NCBI GenBank assembly: GCA_964478595.1
Contig: CAYZIN010000004.1
Location: 557 to 64,556, forward strand
DNA from: an uncultured Candidatus Saccharibacteria bacterium
GTDB taxonomy: Bacteria > Patescibacteriota > Saccharimonadia > UBA4664 > CAZJNH01
DNA length: 64,000 nt
Direction: 5' to 3'
Under the pieces are notes generated by a model. It did no database searches, had not been told where the DNA came from, and saw only the letters and a list, made by a program, of their open reading frames with translations. This document shows, in pieces, positions 5,066-50,207 of this stretch (the first letter of the stretch is position 1; every line of letters begins with the position of its first letter). The translations under genes and the position numbers were made by a program.

Positions 5066-5157
5066 TGTTTCCTACCCCTCGTTTAGTTGCTTCTGGATTA
5101 TTTCGGGATTGGGCCCGAAGGCCCGCTCCCTTAACACCGCTCAAGAACTAGAGTCAA

Positions 5158-5736: not shown

Positions 5737-5856
5737 ATTCTCCTTTCTTATTTATTTAGTTAATGTTTTTCGGGCTTGGCCCGCCCCGCATCTTTCTCTG
5801 CCAAGACGCCGGGTGGACCAAGTCCTGGAACATTTCACTTAAGTTGTTAATTCGCA

Positions 5857-6318
5857 CTAGTTCGAAACCGAGATACTGCCTTCACCGCTTTGGAACGCTG
5901 AAACACTATTGTCGTTGCGAACAAAGCTGAAGGTGCCTCCTCCGGTCGAGACGAAACTGTTGCTCGAGCCGGTTGAGGAGTTGGACTGAACCGTGATCGT
6001 AACCGATCCATCTGGGTGGCCGATCGTACTGGTCCCGCCTGACGTAAAGCTACTAGTGGAATTTCCACTCACGCTTACGCTAACTGCAGGCGTTTGGACC
6101 TGCGCTGGCGCTTGGCCATTTAGATCGATTCCCACTCCGTTGACCGTTACCTCCGGTTGCTCAGTTGTTAGAACCTGGCCAACCAAAACTTGGTCGGAGT
6201 TGGCACTAATGTCATGAGCAATCCTGGCCTGGCTAGCGACCGCGGCCGCCGCAAGAGCTGCGGCGACGGTCAGAGCCAGAGTCAGTTGGATTGGTTTTAC
6301 TTTGAAAGTACTCATCAT
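5857..6318 (-). CDS. Small secreted Ser/Thr/Gly-rich protein (153 aa)
   Basis: Ala-rich signal peptide LTLALTVAAALAAAAVASQA. Low-complexity S/T/G body. Sits inside the repeat-protein cluster. Confidence 0.5.
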   Translation of the reverse strand: MMSTFKVKPIQLTLALTVAAALAAAAVASQARIAHDISANSDQVLVGQVLTTEQPEVTVNGVGIDLNGQAPAQVQTPAVSVSVSGNSTSSFTSGGTSTIGHPDGSVTITVQSNSSTGSSNSFVSTGGGTFSFVRNDNSVSAFQSGEGSISVSN

Positions 6319-6324
6319 CCCTCC

Positions 6325-6954
6325 TTAGAGGCTGCGTTCCTTACGCACCGCGTAAACCGCGCTGCCAGCTGCCCCCAGCAAGCTCATTAGAGCCGCTGCG
6401 GCTAGCAATCCGGCGCTGAGTCCGCGTGTGTGGTTAACCGCTGCCAAATCTTGACTGCCGTTACCAAGCACTCGGCGCAAAGCCGAAACGTCGATGACTC
6501 CGGATGCACCAGTGGCCGGCAACATACCGCCGCCGACGCCACCAGCGCCGCCAGTAGTAGCTAGGGCCAATGCACCGCCGCCGACGCCACCCGAAAGACT
6601 TCCACCGCCTCCCGGTAAGCTGCCGCCGCCAAGTCCACCGCCAATACCGCTGCCGTTAATACTAGTCACAAAGCTGTTGTTGTTACTGGCTGACCCAGTT
6701 GAAGCACTTCCAGCGTTGGTGTTGTTGGTGACATTGGCGTCACCGCTAGTTGCAGTCTGGTCGTTGGTGTTGTCAACGGTCGTAGTTGGAGTATTAACAA
6801 TCGTTGAGGTCTGGTCGTTGCTAATCGTAGTTGTGTTGGTCGAACCTGAACCAGTGTTTGAAATACTGGCGCTGTTGTCGGCCAAAGCACTCATCGGAAC
6901 AGCACTCATAAGACCTGCAATCGCTATACTCGCTACTAATCGTTTTGCAATCAT
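6325..6954 (-). CDS. Secreted repeat-family protein (209 aa). It has a Gly-rich segment and a C-terminal LPATG ... ALRRVL ... TM ... RKERSL region.
   Basis: Signal peptide MIAKRLVASIAIAGLMSAVPMSALA. N-terminal module homologous to 5158..5736 and 39056..39886. The LPATG motif lies about 30 aa before the TM rather than directly before it. Confidence 0.65.
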   Translation of the reverse strand: MIAKRLVASIAIAGLMSAVPMSALADNSASISNTGSGSTNTTTISNDQTSTIVNTPTTTVDNTNDQTATSGDANVTNNTNAGSASTGSASNNNSFVTSINGSGIGGGLGGGSLPGGGGSLSGGVGGGALALATTGGAGGVGGGMLPATGASGVIDVSALRRVLGNGSQDLAAVNHTRGLSAGLLAAAALMSLLGAAGSAVYAVRKERSL

Positions 6955-7839
6955 TTACATCCACCTCCCTTCTTTCCCTATTAGTTGTTTGGTATCTGAC
7001 GCCACAATAAACACAGGCGCAGCCCCTTTGGGACCGGCCTGTATTTCCACGCGTGGTGTAGCAAAAGAAAGGAGAGAAGAACCCGAAGCGTCACTGCGAG
7101 GAGCGTGCTGGAAACCGCTGCGACGTAGGTATGTCATAAAGCTTGAAGTAATTAGGAGCAGGACCGCCAGCCAAGCAATGCTGCCCTGGCTAGGCAAAAC
7201 GTTCCGTAAAGCTGCGAGGCGCAGGGCCATGCCTCGGCCGAAACCGCCGCCTGAACCACTTGCAGCTGGGGCCACCGAACCGGTTGGACCAGTCGGTGCC
7301 GGCAAGCTTTTGTTATTGTCCTGAACCGGGGCAATAGGAGTCGGTTGATTAGCTGAATGATTTAGGGCGATTGGCGTCTGGGGGTTTTGGGTGGCCGGAA
7401 TAGCCAAGTTAACCACCCTGCCGTTGCCGTCGGTGTAGTTGGTTGGCGTGTTTGCAGATGAGGTCAAAGTAGTTGGAGAGCTTACGGCAGAATCCGCCGT
7501 AGATGCCGGAGCCGTAGTGGCTGACTCGCCCGTTGGCGATACCGGAGCTGACGAAGTTTTAACGTCTGAAACTGTGTTGGTTTGATCAGTAGTGGAGGTG
7601 TCCACCGACTGAGATGATTGCTGATCGTTTTCGACCTGAATAGTCGAACCGGAGTCGTTAGTAACCTGAACTTGGGAGGTCGATTTAGTTTCAACGGTTG
7701 AGCCGGGGTCGGTGTCAGCATGAGCTAGGCCGCGAACCATTAAGGTTGCGACTAAGACTGAGAGTGCAGTAACACCAAATTTGGCGAAACCTAGTTTTCT
7801 CAACACTTCCCTCAAATTAAAAATGTCTCCCCACCACAA
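6955..7839 (-). CDS. Ser/Thr-rich secreted or anchored protein (294 aa; start uncertain). Its C-terminal LPAPTG ... ALRNVL ... TM ... RRSG region resembles that of 6325..6954.
   Basis: Hydrophobic segment KFGVTALSVLVATLMVRGLAHA followed by an S/T/Q-rich body. C-terminal TM IAWLAVLLLITSSFMTYL plus RR. Confidence 0.5.
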   Translation of the reverse strand: MWWGDIFNLREVLRKLGFAKFGVTALSVLVATLMVRGLAHADTDPGSTVETKSTSQVQVTNDSGSTIQVENDQQSSQSVDTSTTDQTNTVSDVKTSSAPVSPTGESATTAPASTADSAVSSPTTLTSSANTPTNYTDGNGRVVNLAIPATQNPQTPIALNHSANQPTPIAPVQDNNKSLPAPTGPTGSVAPAASGSGGGFGRGMALRLAALRNVLPSQGSIAWLAVLLLITSSFMTYLRRSGFQHAPRSDASGSSLLSFATPRVEIQAGPKGAAPVFIVASDTKQLIGKEGRWM

Positions 7840-10573: not shown

Positions 10574-12648
<2,075 letters not shown>

Positions 12649-12786
12649 TCAAAAAAAATTGACGCCTCAACGCCCTTCATCACGATCAATTATAGCTTAT
12701 CTCGGAGAAAAAGCCAAGCATTATGGCAATATTTCCAATCTATTTACTCCTGGATTTGCTGAAGCATAAGTGGTTTAATTAGGGCA

Positions 12787-28986: not shown

Positions 28987-29124
28987 TTTGCCTCTAATTT
29001 ACCATACTTATTATGACGAACAAAAAACGAACAGTCAAGCTTCTCTCTTGACTCATAGGAGTAAAATATTAAATAAGCAAAAGCGTAAAGCTTTGGGTCT
29101 CGTTCATTGAGGAAGGAGGCAGAG

Positions 29125-29637
29125 ATGGATTCCGATAAGCCGGTGTTGATGCCTTGCTGCAAAGCCGAGCTGTCGGTCGGGGAGTTGGTCATGCGATCGT
29201 TGATCCTGTATTGCGACAAGTACCCGGGTCTCTATGTGGTCCGGACGGCCTGTCCCAACAACCGCTGCCCCGTCGAGTTCACCTACCGGTTCAACCGGGT
29301 CGACAAGGTCGATGGCAAGGAATGCTATATCGACATCGTTAGCCCTTACCGCAAGCTCGGCAGTTTGGAGGTCCGAGACAACGATGCGACCCAGGAAATC
29401 TGCGATCGCTACCGCGAGCAGTTCGGTAACGAGCCCCTGTCCGGGCACCTGATCGGCTCCAACGCCGAGAAAGCCCTCAGGGACTTCCACCGGGAAATGA
29501 ACAACTTCGGGTTTGCCTGGCAGATCGAGACAGTCTGGGACAACGAGCCGCTCGATCTGGTCAGGGAAGTAACCAGCATGCAGCAGGAAGCCCGGCGTCG
29601 CTTCGGCTCACTCCACGATCTCCCCCGAAGCGCCTAG
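29125..29637 (+). CDS. Hypothetical Cys-rich protein (170 aa), GC-rich, next to tRNA-Pro
   Basis: GGAGG lies 6 nt upstream of the ATG at 29125. N-terminus MDSDKPVLMPCCKAEL...C...C..C. About 60% GC versus about 50% in flanking DNA. A hairpin terminator follows at 29650..29675. Confidence 0.5.
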   Translation: MDSDKPVLMPCCKAELSVGELVMRSLILYCDKYPGLYVVRTACPNNRCPVEFTYRFNRVDKVDGKECYIDIVSPYRKLGSLEVRDNDATQEICDRYREQFGNEPLSGHLIGSNAEKALRDFHREMNNFGFAWQIETVWDNEPLDLVREVTSMQQEARRRFGSLHDLPRSA

Positions 29638-29692: not shown

Positions 29693-29768
29693 TGGTCGGG
29701 GTGGCGGGACTCGAACCCACGGCCTCACGCACCCGAAGCGTGCGCGCTACCAACTGCGCCACACCCCG
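29693..29768 (-). tRNA. tRNA-Pro (anticodon CGG), CCA encoded
   Basis: Manual cloverleaf: acceptor CGGGGTG/CACCCCG, D-arm GCGC-AGTTGGTA-GCGC, anticodon stem CACGC/GCGTG with loop TTCGGGT (anticodon CGG, G37), T-arm GTGGG-TTCGAGT-CCCGC, discriminator A then CCA. The plus-strand ORF 29675..30004 overlaps it and is spurious. Confidence 0.85.
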
Positions 29769-35697: not shown

Positions 35698-37329
35698 CTA
35701 CATCTTTTTGAGCGGTTTGATACCTAGAATCGCGAAATAACTTTCGAAAAAAGAACTAATTTGTTGTACAAAATACAACTTTTCGCCCGCCTTTTTATCT
35801 TGTAGGTCTAATATGCGCTCATTTTCGTAGTAGTCGTGAAATAGCTTAGCCAGATCTGAACCGAAGAAAGCTAACGCATGTACTCCGAAATCCTCACAGA
35901 TTGACTCGAGAAGTGCAGGAAACTTAGAGGCCAATCGTACAATTCCCTGCTCTCTCCCGGAGAGGTCTTGAACCCTCGATCCTACCGACAGTTTTTTAGA
36001 TTTAGCTTTCTCAAGAATTGAGTTTGCTCGAACATAGGCGTACATAACGTACCAATACGGGTTTTTCTGGGACTGTTCCTTGGCGAGGTTAAGGTCAAAG
36101 TCCATATGACTGTCGGCTGAGCGCATCAAGAAAAAGAACCGCGCCACATCTGAACCAACCTCCTTAATCAACTCGTTGGTAGTAACGTAAGTCCCCAAAC
36201 GTTTGCCCATCTTCACCTCTTTGCCATCTCGCATCAGCCTGACGAACTGGTAAACCAGAAAGTCTAACCGTCCCTTTAACTTTAACCCCTGCTCTACCAT
36301 CACCTTTAAAGATAGCGTTTGCCCCGAGTGATCGGCTCCAAAGACCTTAACGGCACCATTAAACCCACGTTTTTTGAAAATGTTTTCGTGATAAGCAAGA
36401 TCGGAACCCAAATAACTGATGTCCCCATTGCTCTTTCTTAGGACACGATCTCGGTCATCACCAAATTTAGTGGACAGGGCCCAAACCGCCCTATCCTTTT
36501 TCTCGGCAAACCCAGACTCAAGTAACTCATTCTCAAGTCGATCGTAGTCGCCCTTCTCGATAAGATCTCGCTCGTTAAACCAGTGGTCCATCTTGATATT
36601 CATGTTGCGAATCGCCGGCTCGATGTAGCGCTGCCTGATCGCTAAGGTTAAAGCCTTAGCCGCTTCCATGTCGGATTTTTCTAACTCAACCCTAAATTCT
36701 TTAGCCAACTCATCTAAATAAGCGCCCTTATACTCCTGTTCACCTTCTTTGAGTCCGGCCGAAATTCTGGCGGAATCCACCAACTTCATAATCTGAGTGC
36801 CGGCGTCGTTGAAGTAGTATTCTCGAGTAACTTCGTTACCTTGCGACGCCAGTACGTTCGAAAGAGTATCGCCAATAAATCCCCCTCTAGCGTTGCCGAT
36901 GGTGAGCGGTCCAGTCGGGTTAGCCGAAATAAACTCTACCTGCACTTTTTGGCCTTTTCCCAGGTTAGAGCTGCCGTAAGTCTGATCGATTTTGGCCAGT
37001 TCTTTTATCCAGACATCGCTCTTGAGCACAAAATTTAAATAGGGCCCTTCGGCTTTAACTTCCTCGATTTGCGGACCGGCTAACTTAACGGCCAAAGCTG
37101 ATGCAATCTCAATCGGTTTTTTACCAGTCTGTTTAGCTAATTCGAAAGCCACATTACAGCTAAAATCACCCTTGCCTTCGGGCGCATACTCGATAACCGC
37201 TTCAACGTCGTGGTTAAACTGCCTTTTGGCCTCAGTCCTAACTAAATTTTGCAGTTCGGTTTTCACTCTCCTGATTATACGAGGTAAAATTAGCTGGATG
37301 AAAGTTTTAGCCAAAAACCGCCGTGCCAA
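35698..37329 (-). CDS. argS: Arginine--tRNA ligase
   Basis: Class I aaRS with HIGH-like and KMSK-like (KMGKR) motifs. The annotated ATG start overlaps smpB divergently; an internal GTG start about 22 codons downstream is possible. Confidence 0.9.
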   Translation of the reverse strand: MARRFLAKTFIQLILPRIIRRVKTELQNLVRTEAKRQFNHDVEAVIEYAPEGKGDFSCNVAFELAKQTGKKPIEIASALAVKLAGPQIEEVKAEGPYLNFVLKSDVWIKELAKIDQTYGSSNLGKGQKVQVEFISANPTGPLTIGNARGGFIGDTLSNVLASQGNEVTREYYFNDAGTQIMKLVDSARISAGLKEGEQEYKGAYLDELAKEFRVELEKSDMEAAKALTLAIRQRYIEPAIRNMNIKMDHWFNERDLIEKGDYDRLENELLESGFAEKKDRAVWALSTKFGDDRDRVLRKSNGDISYLGSDLAYHENIFKKRGFNGAVKVFGADHSGQTLSLKVMVEQGLKLKGRLDFLVYQFVRLMRDGKEVKMGKRLGTYVTTNELIKEVGSDVARFFFLMRSADSHMDFDLNLAKEQSQKNPYWYVMYAYVRANSILEKAKSKKLSVGSRVQDLSGREQGIVRLASKFPALLESICEDFGVHALAFFGSDLAKLFHDYYENERILDLQDKKAGEKLYFVQQISSFFESYFAILGIKPLKKM

Positions 37330-37729
37330 TTTTGATTACACCATCACTGAAAAGCTGGTGGCGGGCCTTTCCTTATCCGGTGCCGAAGTCAAAAGCATTA
37401 AAGCGGGACATATTAGCCTAAAGGGCGCCTACGTTAACGTTTTAGGCAGCGAGGCTTTTTTAATTGGCTCCCACGTTTCTCCTTACCAAAATGCAGTCAA
37501 CTTCGAGCCGGAACGCTCGCGCAAACTCTTGTTGCACCGCAAACAAATCGACCACCTATTAGACCAACGCAACGCCGGCCTGACGGCTGCACCACTGGCG
37601 GTGATTGAGCAAAAGGGCTTAATTAAACTCGAAGTTGGTATTGGGAGACCCAAAAAACAATTGGACAAGCGAGACAGCCTTAAAACGCGGCAACTCGAAA
37701 GAGAATTGGCTAAAAAATTAAAGCGCTAG
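37298..37729 (+). CDS. smpB: SsrA-binding protein SmpB
   Basis: MKVLAKNRRANFDYTI...GAEVKSIKAGHISLKGAYV is canonical SmpB. The tool ORF is extended upstream. Confidence 0.9.
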   Translation: MKVLAKNRRANFDYTITEKLVAGLSLSGAEVKSIKAGHISLKGAYVNVLGSEAFLIGSHVSPYQNAVNFEPERSRKLLLHRKQIDHLLDQRNAGLTAAPLAVIEQKGLIKLEVGIGRPKKQLDKRDSLKTRQLERELAKKLKR

Positions 37730-39886: not shown

Positions 39887-39905
39887 AAAGCCAGCCTAAA
39901 AACTT

Positions 39906-39938
39906 TTAGGGCCGCCCCGCTTGGGGCGACCCTGGTTG
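39906..39938. repeat. Partial copy (hairpin only) of the cassette junction module: agggccgccccgcttggggcgaccct
   Basis: The same GC hairpin as 40669..40694 and 41269..41294. Lies between the convergent ends of 39056..39886 and 39945..40649. Confidence 0.7.
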
Positions 39939-39944
39939 GTTCGT

Positions 39945-40649
39945 CTATCGAACGCAGTTGGGCTCAAGTTCGTCGATCACTTTGCGAGCTTCGTTGATCT
40001 TGGTTAAATCTTCCCCGGCCGCTACGAGAAAATCATAGTGATCCTTGAGACATTCCTGAACGACCCAAATGACCGGCGGAGCCAGGGGCATTAACTCCTC
40101 TGCCAGCTCGTCGCAATCCTCATGCTCACGAGCCGTCTCGACTAGCTCATCGATCTCCTTGCCGAAGTCCTTCAACTCGAGCCCAAGCTTTGGGTCGATC
40201 CCGTTGAGTGCTTTGGCGAAATCGTTGATGTCGCTGAGCGTCTCGAGTTCGTCGAGGAAATCCGACCGATCAAGCAGCCTCTGACCATACTCTCCGAGAT
40301 CCGCTTCGTTGTCGTGCTGAGATATCTCGAAAAAAGCTTCCACGACAGGACTTAGGGCATCGCTAATCTCGATGATCCCAGTTAACTCGCGACCGAGCTC
40401 GGCGATTTGCTGATCGCTATGGATCGACATCCGCTTGGCCAACTCGGAGAGTCGAGCCTTGAGTTTCTCGGCCGGGCTGGCTTCGGGCTCGTCGTTGAAG
40501 ACGAACATTGAGCCGATAACAATCAGGCCCATGAGGTCCTGAGCGACCTTTTGCATAGTCGAATCCTTCGACTGCTGCAAAGCAGTCTGCAGTTTCACTA
40601 GACTTTGCAATTCCACAGGGAACTCCCATCTCTCGATTGGCGTGTTCAT
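39945..40649 (-). CDS. Hypothetical highly acidic, helical protein A (234 aa), first cassette of the array
   Basis: Its start ATG and first 7 codons (MNTPIER) lie inside the repeated junction module. Distant similarity to 41311..41958 (shared DFAK(A/V)L and acidic helices). Confidence 0.6.
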   Translation of the reverse strand: MNTPIERWEFPVELQSLVKLQTALQQSKDSTMQKVAQDLMGLIVIGSMFVFNDEPEASPAEKLKARLSELAKRMSIHSDQQIAELGRELTGIIEISDALSPVVEAFFEISQHDNEADLGEYGQRLLDRSDFLDELETLSDINDFAKALNGIDPKLGLELKDFGKEIDELVETAREHEDCDELAEELMPLAPPVIWVVQECLKDHYDFLVAAGEDLTKINEARKVIDELEPNCVR

Positions 40650-40704
40650 TATAGCTCATAAATACTTAAGGGCCGCCCCGCTTGGGGCGACCCTACTTGG
40701 CGTA
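40622..40704 (-). repeat. Cassette junction module copy 1 (~83 nt): GC hairpin, then TTAAGTATTTATGAGCTATA, then ATGAACACGCCAATCGAGAGATGG
   Basis: Near-identical to 41222..41304 (one mismatch; 600-nt period). Includes the start codon of the downstream cassette. Confidence 0.85.
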
Positions 40705-40992
40705 TTTACGACTTTGTGAGTGCTTCCACCTGAGATATTGCCCGAAAGCCGAGTCGACCGGCTCAGGCGGCGGAGGAGGGTTCTCGATCTCGGTCAGAGT
40801 GCTAGCCAGCAGCAACCCGCCCTTACAGGGGCTACCGCCGTGATCAATCACTGTTTTCAGCAACTGCGATACCTCTTGGTCGCTCGCGGTAGCCAGGCCG
40901 TCTTCTACCTGCCAGGGATCGAAGAAGTCGCAACCGCTGGAGATGTGTTCACGAATCGCTTCGGCGATCCGATAGCGTTTCTCCAGATCCAC
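40693..40992 (-). CDS. Hypothetical small acidic protein (99 aa)
   Basis: ORF with plausible composition. Its C-terminal codons overlap the junction hairpin. Confidence 0.45.
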   Translation of the reverse strand: MDLEKRYRIAEAIREHISSGCDFFDPWQVEDGLATASDQEVSQLLKTVIDHGGSPCKGGLLLASTLTEIENPPPPPEPVDSAFGQYLRWKHSQSRKYAK

Positions 40993-41021
40993 GATGCCTC
41001 CTATATGATCCGAGATGAGCG

Positions 41022-41216
41022 CTATTGCTTGATCAATTCGGTCACCCGCCGCAAGACTTCACTGACGGTGATGCCGTGCTTTGCGGCTACTTGCCTCAAA
41101 GCAATCGCGACGTCGTGATCGACCTCAACGGCAGAAAAACCGGGAGTCACGATCACCACACTGCAGTCAGGGCCTGGCCCCAGGGACACGTTGCGATATC
41201 CAATTACGGTATTCAC
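41022..41216 (-). CDS. Hypothetical small protein (64 aa, GTG start) with an RHH/antitoxin-like C-terminus (ITVSEVLRRVTELIKQ)
   Basis: Begins 8 nt after the stop of the 7-codon uORF MNTPIER* created inside junction copy 2. Confidence 0.4.
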   Translation of the reverse strand: MNTVIGYRNVSLGPGPDCSVVIVTPGFSAVEVDHDVAIALRQVAAKHGITVSEVLRRVTELIKQ

Positions 41217-41221
41217 GATGA

Positions 41222-41304
41222 GCTCCTATCTCTCGATTGGCGTGTTCATTATAGCTCATAAATACTTAAGGGCCGCCCCGCTTGGGGCGACCCTACTTGG
41301 CGTA
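41222..41304 (-). repeat. Cassette junction module copy 2. Its embedded ORF start reads ATGAACACGCCAATCGAGAGATAG: a TGG to TAG change leaves a 7-codon uORF.
   Basis: 83 nt, one mismatch versus copy 1. Confidence 0.85.
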
Positions 41305-41310
41305 GAAGAA

Positions 41311-41958
41311 CTAAAGAGGCTCTTCTTCTTGGAAGTCAGGGGGCTGGCTGTCTATGAGCTCTTGCAGAGACTGGTGGTTGGGATCTTCCCGGTAATCCGG
41401 TTCTTGTGGGGGCTCGCCTGGGGGTGGAATGAGATCGGCAAGATCTGCGCCTTCGAACACGCCCATGTTGGCTCCTCGGAGCACGGCGGCCGGCTTGTCA
41501 TTGCCGGCAGCAACTTCCCTGAGTTTCGCGGTCAGGTCAATCTCCTCGAAGGTTGATTGTGCGAGACGGCCTGTTTCCAGTAGCGACGCTTCAGACATTG
41601 CGAGAATGAACTCAGCCGCGTCGTTAACTAGCATTGACGCTCGAGCTGATTCCGAAACTGCAGCTAAAGCCCGAGCCGCATTGACGCAGAATTCCAAACC
41701 CTCCCGGGCCAGCAGAAACTCGTCGTCCCACTCCGGGAACTGGATTCTTTCCCAGAGTTTATTCCCGAGCTCTTGGAACTCGGGATCGACCGTGTCGTTG
41801 ATAAGTACCTTGGCGAAATCTTCGACCGTGTCGGCATCGTCAAGTGCCGCGAGCAGTCCCTTGAGATCAAGCAGACGAGTTATCTCTGCGCCGATCTCGG
41901 CAAGATCGTTGTCGGTCGACTTGCAAAGAGTTTCAGCCAATACTTCAACATTAGCCAC
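41311..41958 (-). CDS. Hypothetical highly acidic, helical protein B (215 aa, GTG start)
   Basis: Its 5' UTR (ccgCCAATCGAGAGAacGGAGTTCCtT-GTG) is homologous to codons 3-10 of gene A. Acidic C-terminus. Confidence 0.55.
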   Translation of the reverse strand: MANVEVLAETLCKSTDNDLAEIGAEITRLLDLKGLLAALDDADTVEDFAKVLINDTVDPEFQELGNKLWERIQFPEWDDEFLLAREGLEFCVNAARALAAVSESARASMLVNDAAEFILAMSEASLLETGRLAQSTFEEIDLTAKLREVAAGNDKPAAVLRGANMGVFEGADLADLIPPPGEPPQEPDYREDPNHQSLQELIDSQPPDFQEEEPL

Positions 41959-42000
41959 AAGGAACTCCGTTCTCTCGATTGGCGGAGTTATTGTACCAGA

Positions 42001-43785
42001 TTAGGCGGCGAGTTCGTATTGTTTGAGCAAGGCCTTGCGTTGGCGCAGCGGTGCGGTTTGAAGCGCCAGCAATTCGGCGTAGATGCCACCTTCGAGGTCC
42101 GCCAGCTCCTCCGGCGAACCCAACTCGGCTACTCGGCCGCCCCGCAGCCCAACGATCATGTCGACGTTTTGAATGGTGGAGAGTCGGTGGGCAATGATCA
42201 TGGTCGTACGGCCCTTCATCAGCCTCTCTAACGCGTCTTGGACCTCGCGCTCGGCCTTGGAGTCAAGCGAGCTGGTTGCTTCGTCCAGGATGAGGATAGG
42301 CGGGTTTTTGAGTATGGCTCGGGCAATCGCAATGCGCTGTTTTTGCCCGCCGGAAAGTTTGACTCCCCGCTCACCAATTTCGGTGTCATAACCTTGGGGC
42401 AGTTTCTTAATAAAGTCATGCGCGTTAGCGGCTTTAGCAGCTTTAACCAAATCCGATTGCTTAACCGTTTTCTGGCCGTAGCCAATATTTTCTCGGACAC
42501 TGCCGGAGAATAATGCCGGATCCTGAAACACGACTCCCACCGATGACCGCAGCGAACTCTGAGTAACCTTGGCAATGTCTTGCCCATCAATCAGAATCTG
42601 TCCGGAGCTGGGTTCATAGAATCGCAGCAGTAAATTCGAAACCGTCGTTTTACCTTCGCCGCTTTCACCGACCAGCGCTACTTTCATCCCCGGCTGAACC
42701 TTAAACGACACATCTTTGAGCACTTTTTTACCACCCCCATAAGCAAAGTCGATGTCCTTATAAATAACACCGGCGTCTTTGACTTTAAGCGCCCGGGCAC
42801 CCGGTTGATCCTTAATGGCAGCTTCTTGCTCCATAACTTTAAAGTAATCTCGGCTGCCGGCTTTGGCTCGCTGGACTTGATCGATAATAAAACTCGAGGC
42901 AAACAGCGGGAACTGGGCTTGAGCTACCAGCTGCAACATTAAGGTCATCGTACCCAGGCTGATTTGCTGTTTGTAGGCCTGGTAAACAATAAAGCCGTAA
43001 ATTCCGAAAAAGACCACGCTTAGCCCAACCCGGCGAATCACATCGTAGCGGTGCCACTCGGCCGACTGAATTTTAGTTTGCCTCTCGATCGATTTTCGCT
43101 TACCGGCAAAAATTCTCGACTCCACCAGTTCCTGAACAAAGGATTTGACTACCCGAACTTGGCCGACCGCTTCAACGAAACGGCCTTGGGCAAAGTCGGT
43201 GTCCCGGTTAATGCCCTCTTGTTTTTTCTGCCAGGCTCGAGAGGAGAGAGTTGTCAGCCACATATACAGCGGAAACAGCGCGGCTAGCAGAATCGCCACA
43301 GGCGGAGAGTAGTAGGCCAAAATCCCGATTGTAATCCCAGCGGAAAGGAAAAAAGTCAGAAAGTTGTTGGTAAAAGCCTGGATCAGTTCACTAACGGTCA
43401 CGATGCTGCGATCGAGCCGAGAAGTAATCCGGCCGGTAATTTCATTGTCGAAGTACTCCATCGGCAAAGACAGAATGTGGTCGTAGTAGCGCTGAGACAG
43501 CAGAGTTTTGAGTTTGGCACCTAGCTGATCGCCTAAGTAGCCGGCGAAGTTATCGAAGAAAGTTTCAATCAGTGCCACCACCAAAATCATCACAACCCAG
43601 AAAATGAAGAAGCTGGCCGCAACCGGGTGACCTTTATTGATTTTGACCAAACCGTCGACGATGAACTTGAGGAAAAACGGCGTGGCTTGGCGGAGTAAGG
43701 AAATTAAAATTACAAAAAAGCCGGCCGCTAGGTAGTAACGCTTTAGCGACCAAGAATATTTAACGATTTTTAGCAGATCTCTCAC
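42001..43785 (-). CDS. ABC transporter, fused permease/ATPase (MsbA/exporter type)
   Basis: Six-TM N-terminal domain. Walker A GESGEGKTT. ABC signature LSGGQKQR. Walker B ILILDEATS. Confidence 0.9.
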   Translation of the reverse strand: MRDLLKIVKYSWSLKRYYLAAGFFVILISLLRQATPFFLKFIVDGLVKINKGHPVAASFFIFWVVMILVVALIETFFDNFAGYLGDQLGAKLKTLLSQRYYDHILSLPMEYFDNEITGRITSRLDRSIVTVSELIQAFTNNFLTFFLSAGITIGILAYYSPPVAILLAALFPLYMWLTTLSSRAWQKKQEGINRDTDFAQGRFVEAVGQVRVVKSFVQELVESRIFAGKRKSIERQTKIQSAEWHRYDVIRRVGLSVVFFGIYGFIVYQAYKQQISLGTMTLMLQLVAQAQFPLFASSFIIDQVQRAKAGSRDYFKVMEQEAAIKDQPGARALKVKDAGVIYKDIDFAYGGGKKVLKDVSFKVQPGMKVALVGESGEGKTTVSNLLLRFYEPSSGQILIDGQDIAKVTQSSLRSSVGVVFQDPALFSGSVRENIGYGQKTVKQSDLVKAAKAANAHDFIKKLPQGYDTEIGERGVKLSGGQKQRIAIARAILKNPPILILDEATSSLDSKAEREVQDALERLMKGRTTMIIAHRLSTIQNVDMIVGLRGGRVAELGSPEELADLEGGIYAELLALQTAPLRQRKALLKQYELAA

Positions 43786-43879
43786 TCGCTCTATTCTACC
43801 CTCGCGGGCGTAAGACTCAAAGCTTAAGACGCGAGAAGGCCCCCAACTTAGCGCTGGGAGCCTCTCGAGTTACCGGGGG

Positions 43880-44293
43880 TTAGGCAGGGATCTTGACGTG
43901 TTCGTGGACCTCTTGGCGGATCTTCTTGATCCGCTCGGCGGCGCTCCTGGTCAATGCGTCGAACCCATCGAGTTCGAGGTAGACCGGGGCCGAAACATCG
44001 CCGGTGATGCCCATCAGGGCGTTGTACAGCTGCGCTGGAACCTCGACCATGATCTCGCCGTTGACCTCGACCGGTGCCAAGTGCGAAGCACCTGCCCAGT
44101 CGCCTACTCGGTCGCGAGCCGCCATGAACACCTCGCATTGAGGCAACGAGCAACTCGCTTCGTCGTCCCTCCAATGCTGTCCAAAGCCGAAGTGATCGGG
44201 ACCGTGACCAGCCATGCGCTGGCAGTACGGTGATGAGTACAACTGCGGAAACCGAACACGGTCGCAGCTATCAACTGCACCTTCATTACCCAT
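43880..44293 (-). CDS. Hypothetical protein (137 aa), GC-rich (about 60%)
   Basis: AGGAGG lies 5 nt upstream of the ATG at 44293. Unrecognised family. Confidence 0.5.
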   Translation of the reverse strand: MGNEGAVDSCDRVRFPQLYSSPYCQRMAGHGPDHFGFGQHWRDDEASCSLPQCEVFMAARDRVGDWAGASHLAPVEVNGEIMVEVPAQLYNALMGITGDVSAPVYLELDGFDALTRSAAERIKKIRQEVHEHVKIPA

Positions 44294-44361
44294 CTCCACC
44301 TCCTAAGGTCCGAGCTGCTATCGACAGCGTTAGCGTTATTGTCTACCTTTAGCAAAATATT

Positions 44362-45432
44362 TCAAGGCAGCTCGGCGGCCGAACGAACCCTAGGCATTGT
44401 AAAAACTCCCGCTAGAGTTTGAGTCATGCCCTTCGCGGTTGTCACTGCGCTGGTAAAACCCGCCTGCTGCACCAAGCTAATCGTCAGTGCGTTAAAACTG
44501 CCGTAAGGGTAGGCGAAGCTAGAAACACTATGGCCAAGTTGGTATTCAATCGTAGCTTTCGAGTCGAAGATTTCGCTACGTTGAACTTCTGCCGGCTGCG
44601 CCGATAAAGCCAAGTGGTTTACAGTATGGGCCCCAATTTCAATCAAGCCGCTGCGATCAAGTGTCTTAATTTGATCCCAGTTCAAATACGAATCACCGCA
44701 AGCTTGCGCCTGGTTGTAGCGACGACCGGCCCCAATGCACCAGTTACTAGCTGCGCCGCCGGTGATGATGTAGTAGGTTGCTTTCATCTGGTATTTTTGC
44801 AACAACGAAAAAGCTTTGAGCTGGGAAGAAAACCCATCGTCGAACGTAATAATCACCGACTTGCCGGGCAGAACGCTGCGGCCAGACAAAGCATCAACCA
44901 GCTGGTCGGGCGTGATTGTGGTGTAGCCTTTGGCTCTAATTGCTAGCAGCTGCTGCTCAAAATCCGGGGGCGTGTAATGGTAAATCAGAATAGGGACGTT
45001 CACACCGGCGGCCACCGCCTGGGCTCTCGCCGCTTGTTCTGCCTTGGCAGCCGCGGCTTCGGCTTCGGCCCGAGCCTTATTTTTTTTGATCAACGAATTA
45101 TTCCAACCGATCAGATTTCCGGTCAGGCTGCTAATCTGGATTTTGGCAATAGCGTATTGCCCGGAATTGAAAATGTTCGCCCGAATCTCGTCCAGCTGGG
45201 AATTAATTACGCTCGCTTTAACAACCTCAATCCCGCTTTGTTTTTCTGTGGCTTCCAACCTTTCGATCCTCAGCTCAAGATCACTCAAGCCCTGCTCGGC
45301 ACTATCTTTGGCCTGACCGCTAAATTGGCTAACCGCCGCCCTAGCCGGCAACATAACCCCGGCGATGATAAAAAACGCCAAGGCCAGGCCCTTCCACCAA
45401 CTGCCGTAATCAATCCGCTTGCGCTTTGCCAT
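44362..45432 (-). CDS. Polysaccharide deacetylase (NodB-homology) with N-terminal TM and coiled-coil
   Basis: NodB motif IITFDDGFSSQ. N-terminal anchor and Ala/Gln-rich coiled coil. Confidence 0.8.
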   Translation of the reverse strand: MAKRKRIDYGSWWKGLALAFFIIAGVMLPARAAVSQFSGQAKDSAEQGLSDLELRIERLEATEKQSGIEVVKASVINSQLDEIRANIFNSGQYAIAKIQISSLTGNLIGWNNSLIKKNKARAEAEAAAAKAEQAARAQAVAAGVNVPILIYHYTPPDFEQQLLAIRAKGYTTITPDQLVDALSGRSVLPGKSVIITFDDGFSSQLKAFSLLQKYQMKATYYIITGGAASNWCIGAGRRYNQAQACGDSYLNWDQIKTLDRSGLIEIGAHTVNHLALSAQPAEVQRSEIFDSKATIEYQLGHSVSSFAYPYGSFNALTISLVQQAGFTSAVTTAKGMTQTLAGVFTMPRVRSAAELP

Positions 45433-45498
45433 TGCCTTGATTGAATCACATCCACCTAGAAGACGAAAGCCCCGAAGGACTTATCGTCTCGGGGCTCA

Positions 45499-45882
45499 TT
45501 AATGAACTAACTCGGCGAAACGCCGAAGCAAATTCTCGATCCGTTTCACCTGCTCGTCAAGGCGAACCTGCTCATGACCAACGCCGCCGCCATTTCTTAG
45601 GGTTGTGGCCGTCAGGGTCATCCTCGAGAGATCACTGCTCAGCTGAGACTCGGCTTCACCCTTGCTCTTCACTTCGACATCGATGAAGTGCTGCAACTCA
45701 AGCGCTCGCTCGAGCAGGTCGACGCTACCGTGCACGGCTGTGTAGTACTTACTTCCACTTTCCAATCGGCCGATCACACGCTTAAAGCAATCTCGATCAG
45801 CTTCAAGGTGCTTGCGTACGTTCTCGTCGAGCTGTTTCGGCATGGGGCCTTCGGCCGGCATCCATTCGGGTCGATCGCTCAC
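45499..45882 (-). CDS. Hypothetical protein (127 aa), second gene of a two-gene GC-rich operon
   Basis: AAAGGAGA RBS. A hairpin lies downstream at about 45455..45485. Confidence 0.5.
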   Translation of the reverse strand: MSDRPEWMPAEGPMPKQLDENVRKHLEADRDCFKRVIGRLESGSKYYTAVHGSVDLLERALELQHFIDVEVKSKGEAESQLSSDLSRMTLTATTLRNGGGVGHEQVRLDEQVKRIENLLRRFAELVH

Positions 45883-45891
45883 AATTCTCCT

Positions 45892-46086
45892 TTAGTCGAA
45901 GTTGCAGCAGTTGATCTTGCCCTTCACCACTCGGACGTGATCGAGCTTACCCTCGATCGTCATGGGGTAATCACCGTCCGGCACAATCCCCGGCCGGGGT
46001 AGTTCAGGGTGTCCCGCACGCGGCGGGAAGTCGTAGACGTCGACGAACTGCCGGTTAATCTCAGCGATGTAATCTGTCCACCACAT
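45892..46086 (-). CDS. Hypothetical small protein (64 aa)
   Basis: GAGAGGAG RBS immediately upstream of the ATG at 46086. Confidence 0.5.
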   Translation of the reverse strand: MWWTDYIAEINRQFVDVYDFPPRAGHPELPRPGIVPDGDYPMTIEGKLDHVRVVKGKINCCNFD

Positions 46087-46139
46087 CTTCGGCTCCTCTC
46101 AAGTTGCGCCGTCCAGTATGAAGATTTTACACCTAAATC

Positions 46140-46171
46140 AAAAGCACCCGAACCGTAGTTCTGGTGCTTTT
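46140..46171. terminator. Bidirectional hairpin AAAAGCACC...GGTGCTTTT
   Basis: 9-bp stem flanked by A-runs and T-runs on both sides. Confidence 0.45.
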
Positions 46172-46725
46172 GGTGGAGCTGCGGGGAATTGCACCCCGGT
46201 CCGCGAGATAACGCTTCAGGCTACTACAGGCTTAGTCCGTTTGATTTGTTTCTTTTCCAAACCGCCACACAAGCGAACAAAGATAGCGATTCGGAGCAGC
46301 CCAAATCTTAGCGACGAGTTAGGGCAAGCTCATCGAGCAACCAACTAAATGGCGCCGGATTAACCTAGTTGGCGTCGGTTAAAAGGCGGCTTTCGAACTT
46401 AAGCGAAAGCGGGTACTAAATCGTTGCGAGTTAGTAAGGTTGCCTATAACGCTGGCAAGCGGCCTGCAACACTGAAGTGTCAAAGTCCCACGTCGAAGCT
46501 GATCAGCCCCTCATCGTCGCAGCTACCTCCAGCTTACGCAAGATTTGCTTGCTGCAGCTTACCGGTGCTGCTCCTCTCGGCTCGTCAAACAGTCGTTTCA
46601 CTCCTTCGGATTGACTCGCCGGGAATCACATTGAGCTCGAGTATTCTAGCAAAATATTGTGGATTTTTCAACGCCGCCGGTGTAGAATACCGGCGCGTTA
46701 TTCGAACGAGTACCAAGGAGAGAAA

Positions 46726-47205
46726 ATGATTCCGACAACCGCCAGTGAGATCATCAACCGTGCCCATCTGATCATCAGCGCCGAGCCGCCGATCTATTCG
46801 AACTGGATACTGGAAGGGCCCAAGAACAATCCAGCTACACCGCTTGCCGTGGCCGCTGCCGACATCGACGATATCGGTTGCGCCGTGTACCAGTTGGCAG
46901 TTGTGAGTGACAAGATCGATGCTCTTGCGGTCCGCCGCAAGATACTTGGCTATGAAGTCCCGGTCGCGGCCACTCAAGCGCAAGTCGGGCTCGACAGACT
47001 CTGGGACCACAACCCCGAGTTCTATCCGGCCTTCGTCGCCGCCAGGGCCGCCAGGGCTAACATGCCGCTGATGCTGATCGCCTTCACGCTTGATGCAAAC
47101 GACGAGCTCATTGCGATCCTCTATCACCCCATCGACGTACCCACTTCTTTCGCGATCGATACGTTCAAGGACTTGATAGCCGGTACCATCGCTCTCCACA
47201 ACTAG
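46726..47205 (+). CDS. Hypothetical protein (159 aa)
   Basis: AAGGAGAG RBS 3 nt upstream of the ATG at 46726; the tool start at 46657 is an extension. The antisense ORF 46585..47199 is rejected as Arg/Asp-rich. Confidence 0.5.
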   Translation: MIPTTASEIINRAHLIISAEPPIYSNWILEGPKNNPATPLAVAAADIDDIGCAVYQLAVVSDKIDALAVRRKILGYEVPVAATQAQVGLDRLWDHNPEFYPAFVAARAARANMPLMLIAFTLDANDELIAILYHPIDVPTSFAIDTFKDLIAGTIALHN

Positions 47206-47252
47206 CCCTTCGATTTAGGCGAAATGCCTTCCAAATCGGAGGGCTTTTGCTT

Positions 47253-47777
47253 TTAGAGACTTAGAGTGCCGCCGATTTCGCCGAGCCTGTTGAGGCTAAT
47301 CCCGACTGAGCCGCTGGGCTGCAGTTTCGCTCCGTCAACGTAGGCGGTAGCAGTAATTCGATAGTCGTATTCGGTATGGCTAAGCAAACTGGCGGCTTTT
47401 TCGACACCTTGAAGCATACCGGCGATTTGGGCTGTCGCTTCTCCGCCAGGCATCATATCTTGCAGCGCTGCTCCAGCACTTTGATCGATATTTAACTGAA
47501 CCGTTTTCGTTTCGCCGGGCTGAATCTGAAATGACGTGTTGTCTTCACTTTTATAAATAGCTTGAGGCACGGTGTTTGTGGTGGCATCGGCTGAAGCGTT
47601 TCGCTGAATCCTAAGCAGTTCTACCTTGAGACCTTTGACGGTCTGGGGGCTTTTAGTAGTAACGGTCACCGTCACCGGAATGGCTTCGCCACCAATCTTA
47701 GCCGAGCTTGGCGCCGAAACAGCCACATGCACCCCACCAATATTTAAAGCCTTTTTGAAACCGCTAAATAAACCCAT
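47253..47777 (-). CDS. Spo0M-like (sporulation-control protein / arrestin-like) protein
   Basis: N-terminus MGLFSGFKKALNIGGVHVAV resembles the Spo0M family start. The tool ORF is extended upstream to 47918. Confidence 0.5.
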   Translation of the reverse strand: MGLFSGFKKALNIGGVHVAVSAPSSAKIGGEAIPVTVTVTTKSPQTVKGLKVELLRIQRNASADATTNTVPQAIYKSEDNTSFQIQPGETKTVQLNIDQSAGAALQDMMPGGEATAQIAGMLQGVEKAASLLSHTEYDYRITATAYVDGAKLQPSGSVGISLNRLGEIGGTLSL

Positions 47778-48193
47778 GCTGGCAATATAACATGCCAAGT
47801 TTCGCTCATGCTTGCATTGTTGTCTCGCCGCGGAGTACGGTGAAAATCTAAAGGAGCGCGCGTCCATAAGCCGCCGGTTTTGGCGGCTTTTTTGGTACAA
47901 AAAAATGCCTTTCGGCAAAAAACAAGAACCCTGGCAAACGTTTTTTGTTCGTCAATTTTTGGTTTTTGTATGTCCAGACCGACTACTCTAGCACCTAGAA
48001 AGTGATCTGGTTTTTGCCTTAGAGCGGTGCGGCGCGAGCCATTGCCGTGTTCCTTTTATTCGCTTCCCTCCAGGCTGGCTGCCCAGCAAAAAGCTTACGC
48101 TTATTCTACACGCACGTTCCCGTGTCGACAACGCGGTGTATAATTTCAGTGAGCGGCAAGGGCCGCTTGTTCTATCTCCAACCGGAGGTCCAA

Positions 48194-48673
48194 ATGCCAG
48201 AGCTTGGGACGGAAATCCTCGACCTTATTCGCTTGCGCGAAGAGGCGCATAGAGAGATCACACGGAAAGTTGCCGAACTCCAGCTGGTGTGCGAACACCC
48301 GAGTCTCATCCAATTCGACGACGACGAAAACGCGAGCACCGTAAACATGCACAACGGATGGAGGCTGTGTTTGACTTGCGGTGTCGAGGAAGAACCTCGG
48401 CCAGACCGACATGGGTACGGGCGATACTTCTACGTACTTAAGTCGGAAGACGTTACCCACGTCGACATGCTCAACTACGCTCTGCGGCAGCCTTTCCGCG
48501 GCTATAAGGTTCAGTGGAGATGGTGTGTGGGCATACTCGGCGAGCAAGGTCACCCACTACCGGCAACTGAAGCGGTTTACGGCATGACGGAATGGCTTTG
48601 CAGGGAGCACAAGCGGCAAAACGACGAGTATTACCGGCACCAGCCGCAGGTTGTCAGGATGACGGCCCCGTAG
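48194..48673 (+). CDS. Hypothetical protein (159 aa) with a CxxC pair
   Basis: GGAGG lies 6 nt upstream of the ATG at 48194. Confidence 0.5.
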   Translation: MPELGTEILDLIRLREEAHREITRKVAELQLVCEHPSLIQFDDDENASTVNMHNGWRLCLTCGVEEEPRPDRHGYGRYFYVLKSEDVTHVDMLNYALRQPFRGYKVQWRWCVGILGEQGHPLPATEAVYGMTEWLCREHKRQNDEYYRHQPQVVRMTAP

Positions 48674-48717
48674 CAATGAGTCCCGAAGGAACAGCGATTC
48701 CTCCGGGACTCGCTGTT

Positions 48718-49008
48718 TTAAAACTCGATCCAGAAGTATTGGCAGCCTGAGGGACCAAAGTACGCCGCGTGGGATTCATTTGAGCCGATGGTAATCTTAT
48801 CGCCCGGCTTCATTACGTGCTCGCCATCATCAAGCTTCAATTTCATTTCACCATCAACGACCACCAGAATGTGATGCTCCGGATGCTTGTGCGCGTCGAG
48901 GTGATCGTTCGGATCTTCAACAATCAGCTGCGGTTCAAATCCTTGCGACTCCAAGTCCTGCCGGATCTGATTATTCTCCCAGTTTTCATATTTCCCCGCC
49001 TCAATCAC
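48718..49008 (-). CDS. Cupin-domain protein
   Basis: Cupin motifs (HKHPEHHILVVVDGEM...GD.I.I). ATGA-type overlap with the upstream aminopeptidase. Confidence 0.7.
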   Translation of the reverse strand: MIEAGKYENWENNQIRQDLESQGFEPQLIVEDPNDHLDAHKHPEHHILVVVDGEMKLKLDDGEHVMKPGDKITIGSNESHAAYFGPSGCQYFWIEF

Positions 49009-50207
49009 AGCTTGAATTGGCCGTCTTGGTAGATAACTTTTTTGGAGCCGTCGGGCAAGGTGGCGGTGACTTTGCGGCGTTCGGTCGAGATAATGTCGGT
49101 GTGGACAGCGCTTTCATTAAAGCCCATTTTCTCCCACTGCTTTTTGGAAACTTTCGATGGATCACCGCGATAACTTTCTTGATAAGCGTTGCCCAGGGCC
49201 ATGTGGGTGTTACCTTGCTTCCCGCCAAAGTTTTCATCAAACAGTGTCTCGCCCATTAGTTTAGTAATCCGACTCATCCGGCCATCAGTCAAGGAGTATT
49301 CACCAATCTTATCGGCATTTTCAACCGCAATCATGTCGGTCAAAATCTTCTGGTTTTTCTTAGCCGTCGCTTTCACCACTCGCCCTTTTTCGAACTTCAG
49401 CTTGATGCCCTCAACTACATTGCCGTAACGATAAAGCGGCTGGTTGAAAGCGATTGTGCCTTCGGTTCCACGCCAATCCGGTGAGATGAATAACTCAAAC
49501 GAAGGGATGTTGGCGCCGCGCCCACCCAACCAGCCGCGATCGACCCCGAGTTTAACTTTGAGATCAACGTTGTCCCCCTCAACGTGCAGCCATTCGATTT
49601 TGAGGGCGTTAAGTACCCTAATCAGTCTTTTCTGCTCGGCAACAATCGACCGCCACTTAGCGATCGGATCTTTTTCGTCGAGATAACAGCCCAAAATAAT
49701 TTGCTCCCAGTATTTTTCTAAACTCATCCCAACGTCTTTGGCCATCGCCGGGGTGGCAAATGCCGCTAGCGTCCAACTGAATTTACCCTTATTCTCCTTC
49801 TCGTTGCGCCACTGCATGTAGGGTTTAAAGGTTTGGCTTTTACGCATAATCTTGGCGCTATCGACGCCGCTGAGTTCGTACTTGTCGTGCTCAGCGATGA
49901 TAAAAATCGAGTGATCGATTTGGTCGATTAAGCCTTTGTAAAACTTAGCCGGGAAGTGATCGAGCTGATGCTCGGCCGCCAGCTCGTAGTACTCGTGATG
50001 AGCCACGTCGTCGGCGCCGTACATCAGCAGCATATGGGCGCCGCTAGCTAAAATCGATCGACGCAAGTGCGGGATAAAAATCTTGGCGGCTTCTGGAATA
50101 GAAACCATCACCGTCTCGCCTTTTTTAACCCCTTTGCCGCCGCTAAGAGCGAATTTGACGAGCAGGTCGGCGTATTTTTGGAGAGTTTTCTCGTCGGGCT
50201 GATACAT
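49005..50207 (-). CDS. Aminopeptidase, M29 (AmpS/PepS/aminopeptidase T) family
   Basis: Full-length similarity pattern to the thermophilic aminopeptidase T/S family (start MYQPDEKTLQKYADLLVK). Confidence 0.8.
   Translation of the reverse strand: MYQPDEKTLQKYADLLVKFALSGGKGVKKGETVMVSIPEAAKIFIPHLRRSILASGAHMLLMYGADDVAHHEYYELAAEHQLDHFPAKFYKGLIDQIDHSIFIIAEHDKYELSGVDSAKIMRKSQTFKPYMQWRNEKENKGKFSWTLAAFATPAMAKDVGMSLEKYWEQIILGCYLDEKDPIAKWRSIVAEQKRLIRVLNALKIEWLHVEGDNVDLKVKLGVDRGWLGGRGANIPSFELFISPDWRGTEGTIAFNQPLYRYGNVVEGIKLKFEKGRVVKATAKKNQKILTDMIAVENADKIGEYSLTDGRMSRITKLMGETLFDENFGGKQGNTHMALGNAYQESYRGDPSKVSKKQWEKMGFNESAVHTDIISTERRKVTATLPDGSKKVIYQDGQFKL

Follow-up and report, generated by a model that had tools for sequence, protein, structure and literature searches.

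A candidate plasticity zone around the ABC exporter and tmRNA genes of an uncultured Saccharibacteria genome

The DNA analysed here (64,000 nt, hereafter the window, whose own numbering gives all positions) comes from an uncultured Candidatus Saccharibacteria bacterium (GCA_964478595.1, contig CAYZIN010000004.1, 557 to 64,556, forward strand). Its region 39900-48700 carries nine small orphan genes (g234, g99, g64a, g215, g139, g127, g64b, g159 and g159b) together with an ATP-binding cassette (ABC) exporter gene and ssrA, the gene for transfer-messenger RNA (tmRNA). A sequence-only reading had described the region as one GC-rich, laterally acquired or rapidly evolving island. We favour, at a probability of roughly 0.6, a plasticity zone in which three variable slots lie on a conserved backbone that includes ssrA, rather than a single acquired island. 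In this arrangement, slot 1 (39.9-42.0 kb, downstream of the exporter) would consist of three self-contained expression cassettes carrying g215, g234 and the g64a-g99 pair; slot 2 (43.8-46.1 kb, from the exporter to the ssrA 3′ end) would hold g139, a deacetylase gene and the g64b-g127 pair; and slot 3 (46.5-49.0 kb) would hold g159 (divergent from ssrA), the genes for an arrestin-like protein and a cupin, and g159b, which a conserved promoter precedes. The anatomy of the region, its tmRNA gene, the repeated modules, the conservation and variation among relatives and the phage affinity of g64b were observed directly. Turnover of slot content would proceed by homologous recombination and duplication at conserved modules and flanks, combined with fast sequence divergence, and an occasional phage-derived gene may land beside ssrA.

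Conserved frame and fast-diverging genes

The locus was compared with five related contigs (L001, L081, L132, L133 and L135), mostly short and covering it in part; L001 belongs to an uncultured Candidatus Saccharibacteria metagenome-assembled genome (MAG) retrieved via its M29 aminopeptidase (86% identity). The order argS-smpB-XRE-MBL-repeat protein-ABC exporter-tmRNA-(M29 aminopeptidase)-glycoside hydrolase (GH) is kept in the related contigs, and the intervening genes differ. Core genes of L001 and the window are 62-89% identical, and the shared frame extends to the GH and a glycosyltransferase (GT). The exporter (42001..43785, minus strand; transmembrane domain plus ATPase, Pfam ABC_membrane and ABC_tran) is 89% identical in L001, 83% in L132, 80% in L135, 77% in L133 and 66% in L081; it is a conserved backbone gene and no part of an island. 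The slots of L001 contain genes for 78-aa, g234-like, NUDIX, 163-aa, 129-aa and 277-aa proteins. L081 runs GH, tmRNA, 7 kb of other genes (peptidase A4, NUDIX-LMWPc, DUF5666, alpha/beta-hydrolase and LytR), exporter, repeat protein, MBL, smpB and argS, without an M29 aminopeptidase at the locus. By tblastn, g99, g64a, g215, g139, the deacetylase, g127, g64b, the Spo0M-like (that is, arrestin-like) gene, g159b and the cupin were all missing from the syntenic L001 locus, and at the L001 and L081 loci the search recovered neither any small gene of the window nor the deacetylase, the cupin or the arrestin-like protein. The proposal that the small genes are accessory and variable is borne out by these absences. 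In the synteny comparison the slot genes vary among relatives, and the exporter and tmRNA genes within the region are conserved.

An exhaustive HMMER search for homologues of the orphans, run over 1.84 billion representatives, recovered the window's own proteins, confirming the gene calls and two corrected starts. Each orphan matched zero to two non-self clusters, the exception being g64b with about 80; g127 and g159b had no non-self relatives among these representatives. The protein encoded by g215 has 49-50% identity with P0008, found in L132 immediately behind the 83%-identical exporter and followed by MBL, XRE, smpB and argS. Similarly, g139 shares 42-43% identity with P0009, upstream of the 77%-identical exporter in L133; g234 shares 37% with P0013, the L001 protein at the same position; and g99 shares 39-46% with P0079, directly downstream of the 80%-identical exporter in L135. 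The g159 protein is 31-32% identical to P0059 and P0087 and 26% identical to the protein encoded at 13350-13841 of L001, both genes lying on the tmRNA 5′ side. A phmmer scan of all open reading frames (ORFs) of the related loci added no further orthologue pairs. Five of the nine orphans (g234, g215, g99, g139 and g159) thus have orthologues with 26-50% identity, detected at the protein level where blastn gives nothing; except for g99, these occupy the corresponding position. Since the core genes next to these orthologues are 59-89% identical, the orphans concerned appear to be clade-restricted, rapidly evolving genes and not recent imports, as the sequence comparison indicates; between acquisition and rapid evolution, the two options offered earlier, the latter fits best. 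Ten small proteins were searched in Pfam, PHROGs, PADLOC and NCBIfam without a usable family assignment, and the concatenated orphans had no tblastn match in 50,697 phage records. The proteins are mostly acidic (pI 4.05-5.97), in line with the earlier description.

The cassette array downstream of the exporter

Slot 1 reads, on the minus strand and starting from the exporter, leader-g215-hairpin, promoter-leader-g64a-g99-hairpin, promoter-leader-g234-hairpin. Each of the three cassettes has its own -10 element (TATAAT or TACAAT), a conserved leader of about 20 nt with a strong terminal Shine-Dalgarno site (CGCCAATCGAGAGAnnGGAG), GTG as start codon 6 nt further on and a GC-hairpin terminator; promoters and terminators throughout are consensus matches. 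The repeated module (minus strand, 85-92 nt) comprises the hairpin GGGTCGCCCC-AAGC-GGGGCGGCCC, then TTAAGTATTTATGAGCTATAATGAACACGCCAATCGAGAGAnnGGAG, 6 nt and GTG. One full copy, with hairpin terminator, TATAAT -10, leader CGCCAATCGAGAGATGGGAG and GTG, lies at 40613..40704 (minus; repeat families D1, D2 and D4, alignment and motif search), and the other at 41213..41304 (minus; repeat family D1, alignment); the two are 98% identical over 85 nt and spaced by exactly 600 nt. A partial, leader-only copy between the exporter stop and g215 (41955..41995, minus; repeat family D2) carries the -10 TGGTACAAT, the leader CGCCAATCGAGAGAACGGAG and GTG. At the far end, only the hairpin part is present (39905..39939, minus), one of three copies of the hairpin, which with its T run forms the terminator of g234 (repeat family D4, terminator scan and a predicted fold of -25.1 kcal/mol, z -4.2).

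Cassette 1 encodes the 215-aa acidic protein g215 (41311..41958, minus; self match P0002, pI 4.05), a paralogue of g234 according to the family alignment. Its N-terminal part is helical and its Pro/Glu tail disordered; in an AlphaFold2 model of low confidence (pLDDT 59.7), too poor for a fold search, the helical N-terminal ~75 residues stand out. Cassette 2 begins with g64a, a putative 64-aa gene (41022..41216, minus) recognised as an ORF with AGGAG and GTG behind the leader, followed by the 99-aa orphan g99 (40693..40992, minus; self match P0007). The g64a protein has no Pfam match, and its PDB sequence matches are designed helical repeats only; an impression from its sequence that it is a ribbon-helix-helix protein was dropped, as neither Pfam nor PDB supports it. 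Cassette 3 contains g234 (39945..40616, minus; self match P0001, pI 4.3, third-codon-position GC (GC3) 0.66), which probably begins at the GTG at 40616, giving an acidic helical protein of 223 aa. Together with their orthologues, g215 and g234 form one weak family of acidic helical proteins.

The leader CGAGAG[AT]NNGGAG was present at 8/8 cassettes from five species (three times in the window, twice in L001 and, after the exporter, in L132, L135 and L081). Extended to CGAGAG[AT]NNGG[AG]N4-9[AG]TG, the pattern matched those eight sites only in seven sequences (the window and six related loci), with ~0.1 matches expected per 64 kb. The unit after the exporter of the relatives consists of a -10 element, ..TCGAGAG[AT]NNGGAG, a start codon, an ORF and a GC hairpin of differing sequence. 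The ORF behind the leader can be unrelated between species, being g215-like, g99-like, the 78-aa protein h78 or a Zn-ribbon-like 141-aa protein. We rejected the leader as a structured RNA (RNAalifold -0.46 kcal/mol, no covariation); possible readings are an extended Shine-Dalgarno site or a site bound by a protein or a small RNA.

The tmRNA gene and the adjoining slots

The stretch 46087-46725 had been described as ORF-free. It holds no protein gene but is not empty, since it contains a full-length ssrA with encoded CCA (46171..46510, minus) that had been missed. The match to Rfam RF00023 (Infernal, model positions 1-374) reached 104.9 bits (gathering score 47, E 6e-40). The gene ends in ..CUCCACCA at its 3′ side, and the tag frame, read by eye in the aligned mRNA-like region (..AAC GAU UUA GUA CCC GCU UUC GCU UAA), would give NDLVPAFA*. 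The SmpB gene (37298-37729, Pfam E 1.6e-42) lies 8.4 kb from ssrA. A hairpin previously taken to be bidirectional is present and is the intrinsic ssrA terminator, directly after the tmRNA-encoded CCA (46141..46170, minus; sequence and inverted repeat). A candidate ssrA promoter, TTGAAA-17-TAGAAT with TG, was found at 46643..46671 (minus; promoter scan, 10/12 consensus matches only). The second reported hairpin, over a TAGAAT upstream of 46726, also exists (46675..46695, plus; CGCCGGT-GTAGAAT-ACCGGCG, CGCCGGTGTAGAATACCGGCG); the TGTAGAAT that it carries could, from its sequence, plausibly serve the divergent gene at 46726 as an extended -10. The gap is ssrA plus its terminator and divergent promoters. 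ARAGORN made no tmRNA call at 46171-46510 despite the Infernal score of 105 bits, and detection of tmRNA by ARAGORN only in genomes of the candidate phyla radiation (CPR) can produce false ORF-free gaps. Before an apparently ORF-free, hairpin-rich gap beside orphan genes is called regulatory or exotic, a search for tmRNA and other RNA genes is advisable. In L001, the tmRNA gene (12422-12764) and the divergent g159-like gene are inverted relative to the exporter; the orientation in L081 is that of the window.

In slot 2, g139 (43880..44293, minus; 137 aa, GC 60%, self match P0005) follows a TTGAAA-16-GACAAT promoter and AGGAGG, and shows no similarity to the 129-aa protein h129 of L001. Next to it lies a polysaccharide deacetylase gene (44362..45432, minus; Pfam Polysacc_deac_1, E 3e-25) that encodes an N-terminal membrane anchor and has no tblastn match at this locus in the relatives. 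The two-gene unit reported at 45499..46086 was confirmed, with a gap of 9 nt; it consists of g64b (45892..46086, minus; 64 aa), the first gene past the ssrA terminator, and the 127-aa orphan g127 (45499..45882, minus; self match P0006 only). As the partner of g64b, g127 is not shared.

The g64b family is widespread, with ~80 clusters at 40-68% identity and the motif MWMTDYIxEIQRQ...VPDGEYPMTIEGKLDxV...CCNF, and the domain is occasionally fused into larger proteins. A 53%-identical member occurs in the phage contig L137 with a primase (phrog_2597, 6.6e-44) and terminase-like and PAPS-reductase-like proteins, and nine viral contigs of IMG/VR carry members at 45-63% identity. An AlphaFold model of g64b (helix plus four strands, pLDDT 87) had no fold match in PDB or BFVD. 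In the viral contigs with g64b homologues, neither a tmRNA-like attP nor a nearby tRNA was found. g64b is the only direct evidence in the region for a mobile (phage) gene pool, and its phage affinity accords with what is known of tmRNA genes, which serve as integration sites (PMC11915505, PMC3146451). A 69%-identical g64b homologue is surrounded by ~17 co-oriented small genes, nearly all without a Pfam match, in another contig of 56% GC (L136, 4581-13919; GCA_030150485.1, JASLFZ010000007.1), an orphan-gene array larger than that of the window.

Slot 3 starts with the 159-aa orphan g159 (46726..47205, plus; self match P0004), divergent from ssrA. The gene at 47253..47777 (minus) encodes a 174-aa protein with an arrestin/Spo0M-like beta-sandwich appearance, and it had been called Spo0M-like. 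That name did not hold: Spo0M (PF07070) gave no Pfam match, and what remains is an Arrestin_C match of 25.0 bits, below the 27.7 cut-off, along with weak PDB arrestin matches (E 0.06-0.2). A resemblance to arrestins at the fold level is plausible from these matches, and the protein was not found at related loci. The 416 nt at 47778-48193 are without a gene; they include a strong terminator-like hairpin with T run at 47868-47889 (plus), with no obvious gene upstream for it to terminate, and after it a conserved promoter/5′ region (48006..48168, plus) with a GCTGG..CCAGC inverted repeat, TGTATAAT and a hairpin GCGGC/GCCGC. This region is 77% identical to its counterpart in L001, which precedes another gene (277 aa, nucleotidyltransferase-like by eye only). 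As a candidate non-coding RNA, the element (160 nt) was rejected for want of an Rfam family or a significant fold, and it is better read as a promoter/5′ untranslated region. Behind it lies the 159-aa orphan g159b (48194..48673, plus; GGAGG Shine-Dalgarno site, self match P0003 only). Its single CxxC motif (CLTC) is the one clear case of the CxxC proteins announced in the plural.

A small cupin of 96 aa (48718..49008, minus; Pfam Cupin_2 / AraC_binding), absent from L001, overlaps the aminopeptidase stop by 4 nt. The M29 aminopeptidase itself (49005-50207, minus) is patchily distributed, with 86% identity in the Saccharibacteria MAG, next 53-57% in DPANN archaea (Nanoarchaeota/Woesearchaeota), and further members in other CPR; these identities suggest transfer among episymbiont lineages.

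Base composition, rival explanations and known systems

The region 39900-48700 has 53.4% GC, the top value among all 8.8-kb windows and 2.7 points above the whole window (50.7%). Four segments had been estimated by eye at 57-60% GC. The one at 43.85-44.3 kb indeed measures 60.5%, but those at 39.9-42.0 kb (54.8%), 45.5-46.1 kb (56.1%) and 46.7-48.7 kb (53.5%) fall short; the estimate of ~48-52% for the flanks was accurate (50.5% and 49.4%). Inside the region, the exporter (51.0%), the deacetylase (52.2%) and the supposedly ORF-free stretch (51.0%) are at background level. Per gene, the nine orphans average 56.4% GC and a GC3 of 0.67, against 51.0% and 0.555 for the 48 other genes of the window (Mann-Whitney p = 1.7e-5 for GC, 1.2e-5 for GC3). 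GC and GC3 are not uniform (p ~1e-5), but tetranucleotide usage is largely native, with 39-43 kb mildly atypical (z ~ +1.8) and the remainder of the region unremarkable. The composition shift is real and gene-specific, and it had been overstated. The GC3 excess of slot genes is also seen in L001 (59-62% vs 52-53%) and L081, and phage contigs carrying g64b homologues mostly have 53-63% GC; the excess may stem from a mobile gene pool richer in GC, or from gene conversion with a GC bias at a recombination hotspot.

In tetranucleotide usage, the most extreme segment of the window lies at 2-8 kb, outside the region studied, where five consecutive genes at 2822-7839 (minus; 747, 192, 153, 209 and 294 aa) have no Pfam match, ~55% GC and z up to 3.8; by composition this segment is more island-like than 39900-48700. 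Elsewhere, a 176-aa ORF at 29107-29637 (plus; 59% GC, GC3 0.81, no Pfam match) ends ~56 nt from tRNA-Pro(cgg) (29693-29768, minus) and may be either spurious or one more small gene gained by acquisition. Many core genes of the window (starts e.g. 43785, 37995, 50207, 52628, 27087 and 33118) have a TAnAAT-like hexamer 7-9 nt upstream and no Shine-Dalgarno site, and look leaderless, their starts being uncurated.

A single island or prophage remnant, inserted by a tyrosine integrase into the ssrA 3′ end and bringing all GC-rich genes as foreign cargo, would account for much of this, as tmRNA genes are often integration sites (PMC11915505, PMC3146451, PMC2764846), each genome compared has different genes next to the ssrA 3′ end, g64b directly past the ssrA terminator comes from a phage-borne family, and the orphans are GC-richer than core genes. 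We regard this as improbable and, for the whole region, largely refuted. A Pfam scan of every ORF between 39.9 and 49.0 kb revealed no integrase or recombinase domain, the window contains no second ssrA 3′ end (<=3 mismatches; short-word blastn), and PHROG matches were zero for ten proteins; tblastn against 50,697 phage records likewise gave no match, only g64b having homologues on metagenomic viral contigs. The exporter within the segment is conserved in situ (66-89%), g139, g215, g99 and g234 have orthologues in relatives (at the corresponding position except g99), and GC-rich genes also stand on the ssrA 5′ side. Instead of block presence or absence, relatives retain the exporter and tmRNA and only the intervening genes differ. 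The contiguous acquired island of the sequence-only reading, lacking an integrase or an att-like repeat and spanning conserved backbone genes, is therefore not upheld. Its suggestion of an immunity or defence role fares no better. Small acidic variable genes near a tRNA-like gene do resemble defence or immunity islets, and an XRE regulator is nearby, but PADLOC returned only two negligible matches (E 0.003 and 0.0096, ~14 bits, both to g234), NCBIfam and PHROGs returned none, Pfam and NCBIfam show no toxin, nuclease, ATPase or methylase domains, and no toxin gene was found in the window flanks examined. An anti-phage defence or toxin-immunity island is accordingly quite improbable.

Least credible of all is the view that the small ORFs are frames left open by chance in DNA that is GC-rich and non-coding or decaying. 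GC-rich DNA does have fewer stop codons, several antisense ORFs are of similar length, and three ORFs lack any homologue. On the other hand, all nine orphans have Shine-Dalgarno sites (GGAG, AGGAG or GGAGG) at the correct spacing, as claimed earlier for the small proteins, and they show the codon-position periodicity of coding DNA (GC1 high, GC2 low, GC3 high) with positive codon scores; six of the nine have protein-level homologues of matching length, and dedicated promoters and terminators flank them. Possible, though unlikely, is that the cassettes encode functional partners of the exporter (exported effectors, surface or host-interaction factors, or chaperones or immunity proteins) engaged in an arms race with the host bacterium of the epibiont. 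The same slot-specific leader precedes the gene or genes directly downstream of the exporter in five species, an Asn/Ser/Thr/Gly repeat protein of secreted appearance lies alongside, the sequences diverge very quickly (26-50% vs 59-89% identity of neighbouring core genes) and the cassette proteins are acidic and partly disordered. Against it, no signal peptide, double-glycine leader or known secretion motif was seen, Pfam shows no peptidase or accessory domain in the exporter, and the cargo behind the leader is unrelated among species. Somewhat less likely still is a more specific version for slot 1 as an integrase-free cassette-exchange site, in which leader and hairpin would serve as homology anchors and as a shared expression or regulation signal, and the small acidic proteins being swapped, duplicated and rapidly diversified would be partners or cargo of the exporter during epibiosis.

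Several points weigh against the plasticity zone that we favour and against its link to the exporter. Turnover was deduced rather than observed, because the five related contigs are partial and mostly short. Linkage is what ties the orphans to the exporter; their proteins lack signal peptides and any known export motif. The leader may amount to just an unusually long Shine-Dalgarno site, as AGAUAGGAG resembles the complement of a typical 16S 3′ tail (the 16S gene lies outside the window). A third genome shows no linkage of g159 with tmRNA, its homologue P0087 not being beside a tmRNA gene. Finally, g127, g159b and g64a, which have no homologues, could be very young, very fast-evolving or mis-called.

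Among known systems, tmRNA genes are frequent integration sites of islands (PMC11915505), including the ssrA islands of Dehalococcoides (PMC3146451, PMC2764846). The locus resembles the latter in that variable, strain-specific genes of a streamlined genome lie at a single-copy ssrA, with a phage-family gene (g64b) directly after the ssrA terminator. It differs from them in having no integrase or direct repeat of the ssrA 3′ end in the window, variable genes on both sides with backbone genes interleaved, and an inverted ssrA block in one relative (L001). Conserved flanks, genome-specific cargo, enrichment in hypothetical genes and a mild compositional shift are shared with regions of genome plasticity (panRGP, 10.1101/2020.03.26.007484; Patescibacteria islands, PMC12455944). 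Unlike these, much of the window's cargo is not imported but consists of clade-restricted orthologues diverging several-fold faster, and one slot is made of tandem cassettes that share promoter, leader and terminator. Short, co-oriented orphan-gene cassettes in tandem with a hairpin-containing repeat between them also recall integron arrays and CALINs. In contrast to integrons, no IntI was found by the Pfam scan of the region's ORFs, there are three cassettes only, and each has its own -10 element and ribosome-binding site, whereas integron cassettes are promoterless. The repeats are also unlike attC sites, which are structure-conserved imperfect palindromes of 57-141 nt; those of the window are 85-92 nt long and 98% identical in sequence with a plain, perfect terminator stem of 10-11 bp (no dedicated attC model was run). 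As a flexible region surrounding a CPR tmRNA gene, the locus falls into a known class; its distinctive part is the slot-specific leader and cassette organisation.

In this streamlined, ultra-small CPR genome, gene novelty is concentrated into a few slots amid conserved genes, and the novelty at this locus consists mostly of clade-restricted genes that evolve several times faster than their neighbours, not of recent imports. The role of the orphans is most likely tied to the ABC exporter, judging from their invariant linkage and the slot-specific leader, for example as exported or surface/host-interaction factors. To our knowledge, very few host-interaction factors of Saccharibacteria are known; if the leader and the link to the exporter prove functional, the cassettes would be candidates for such factors.

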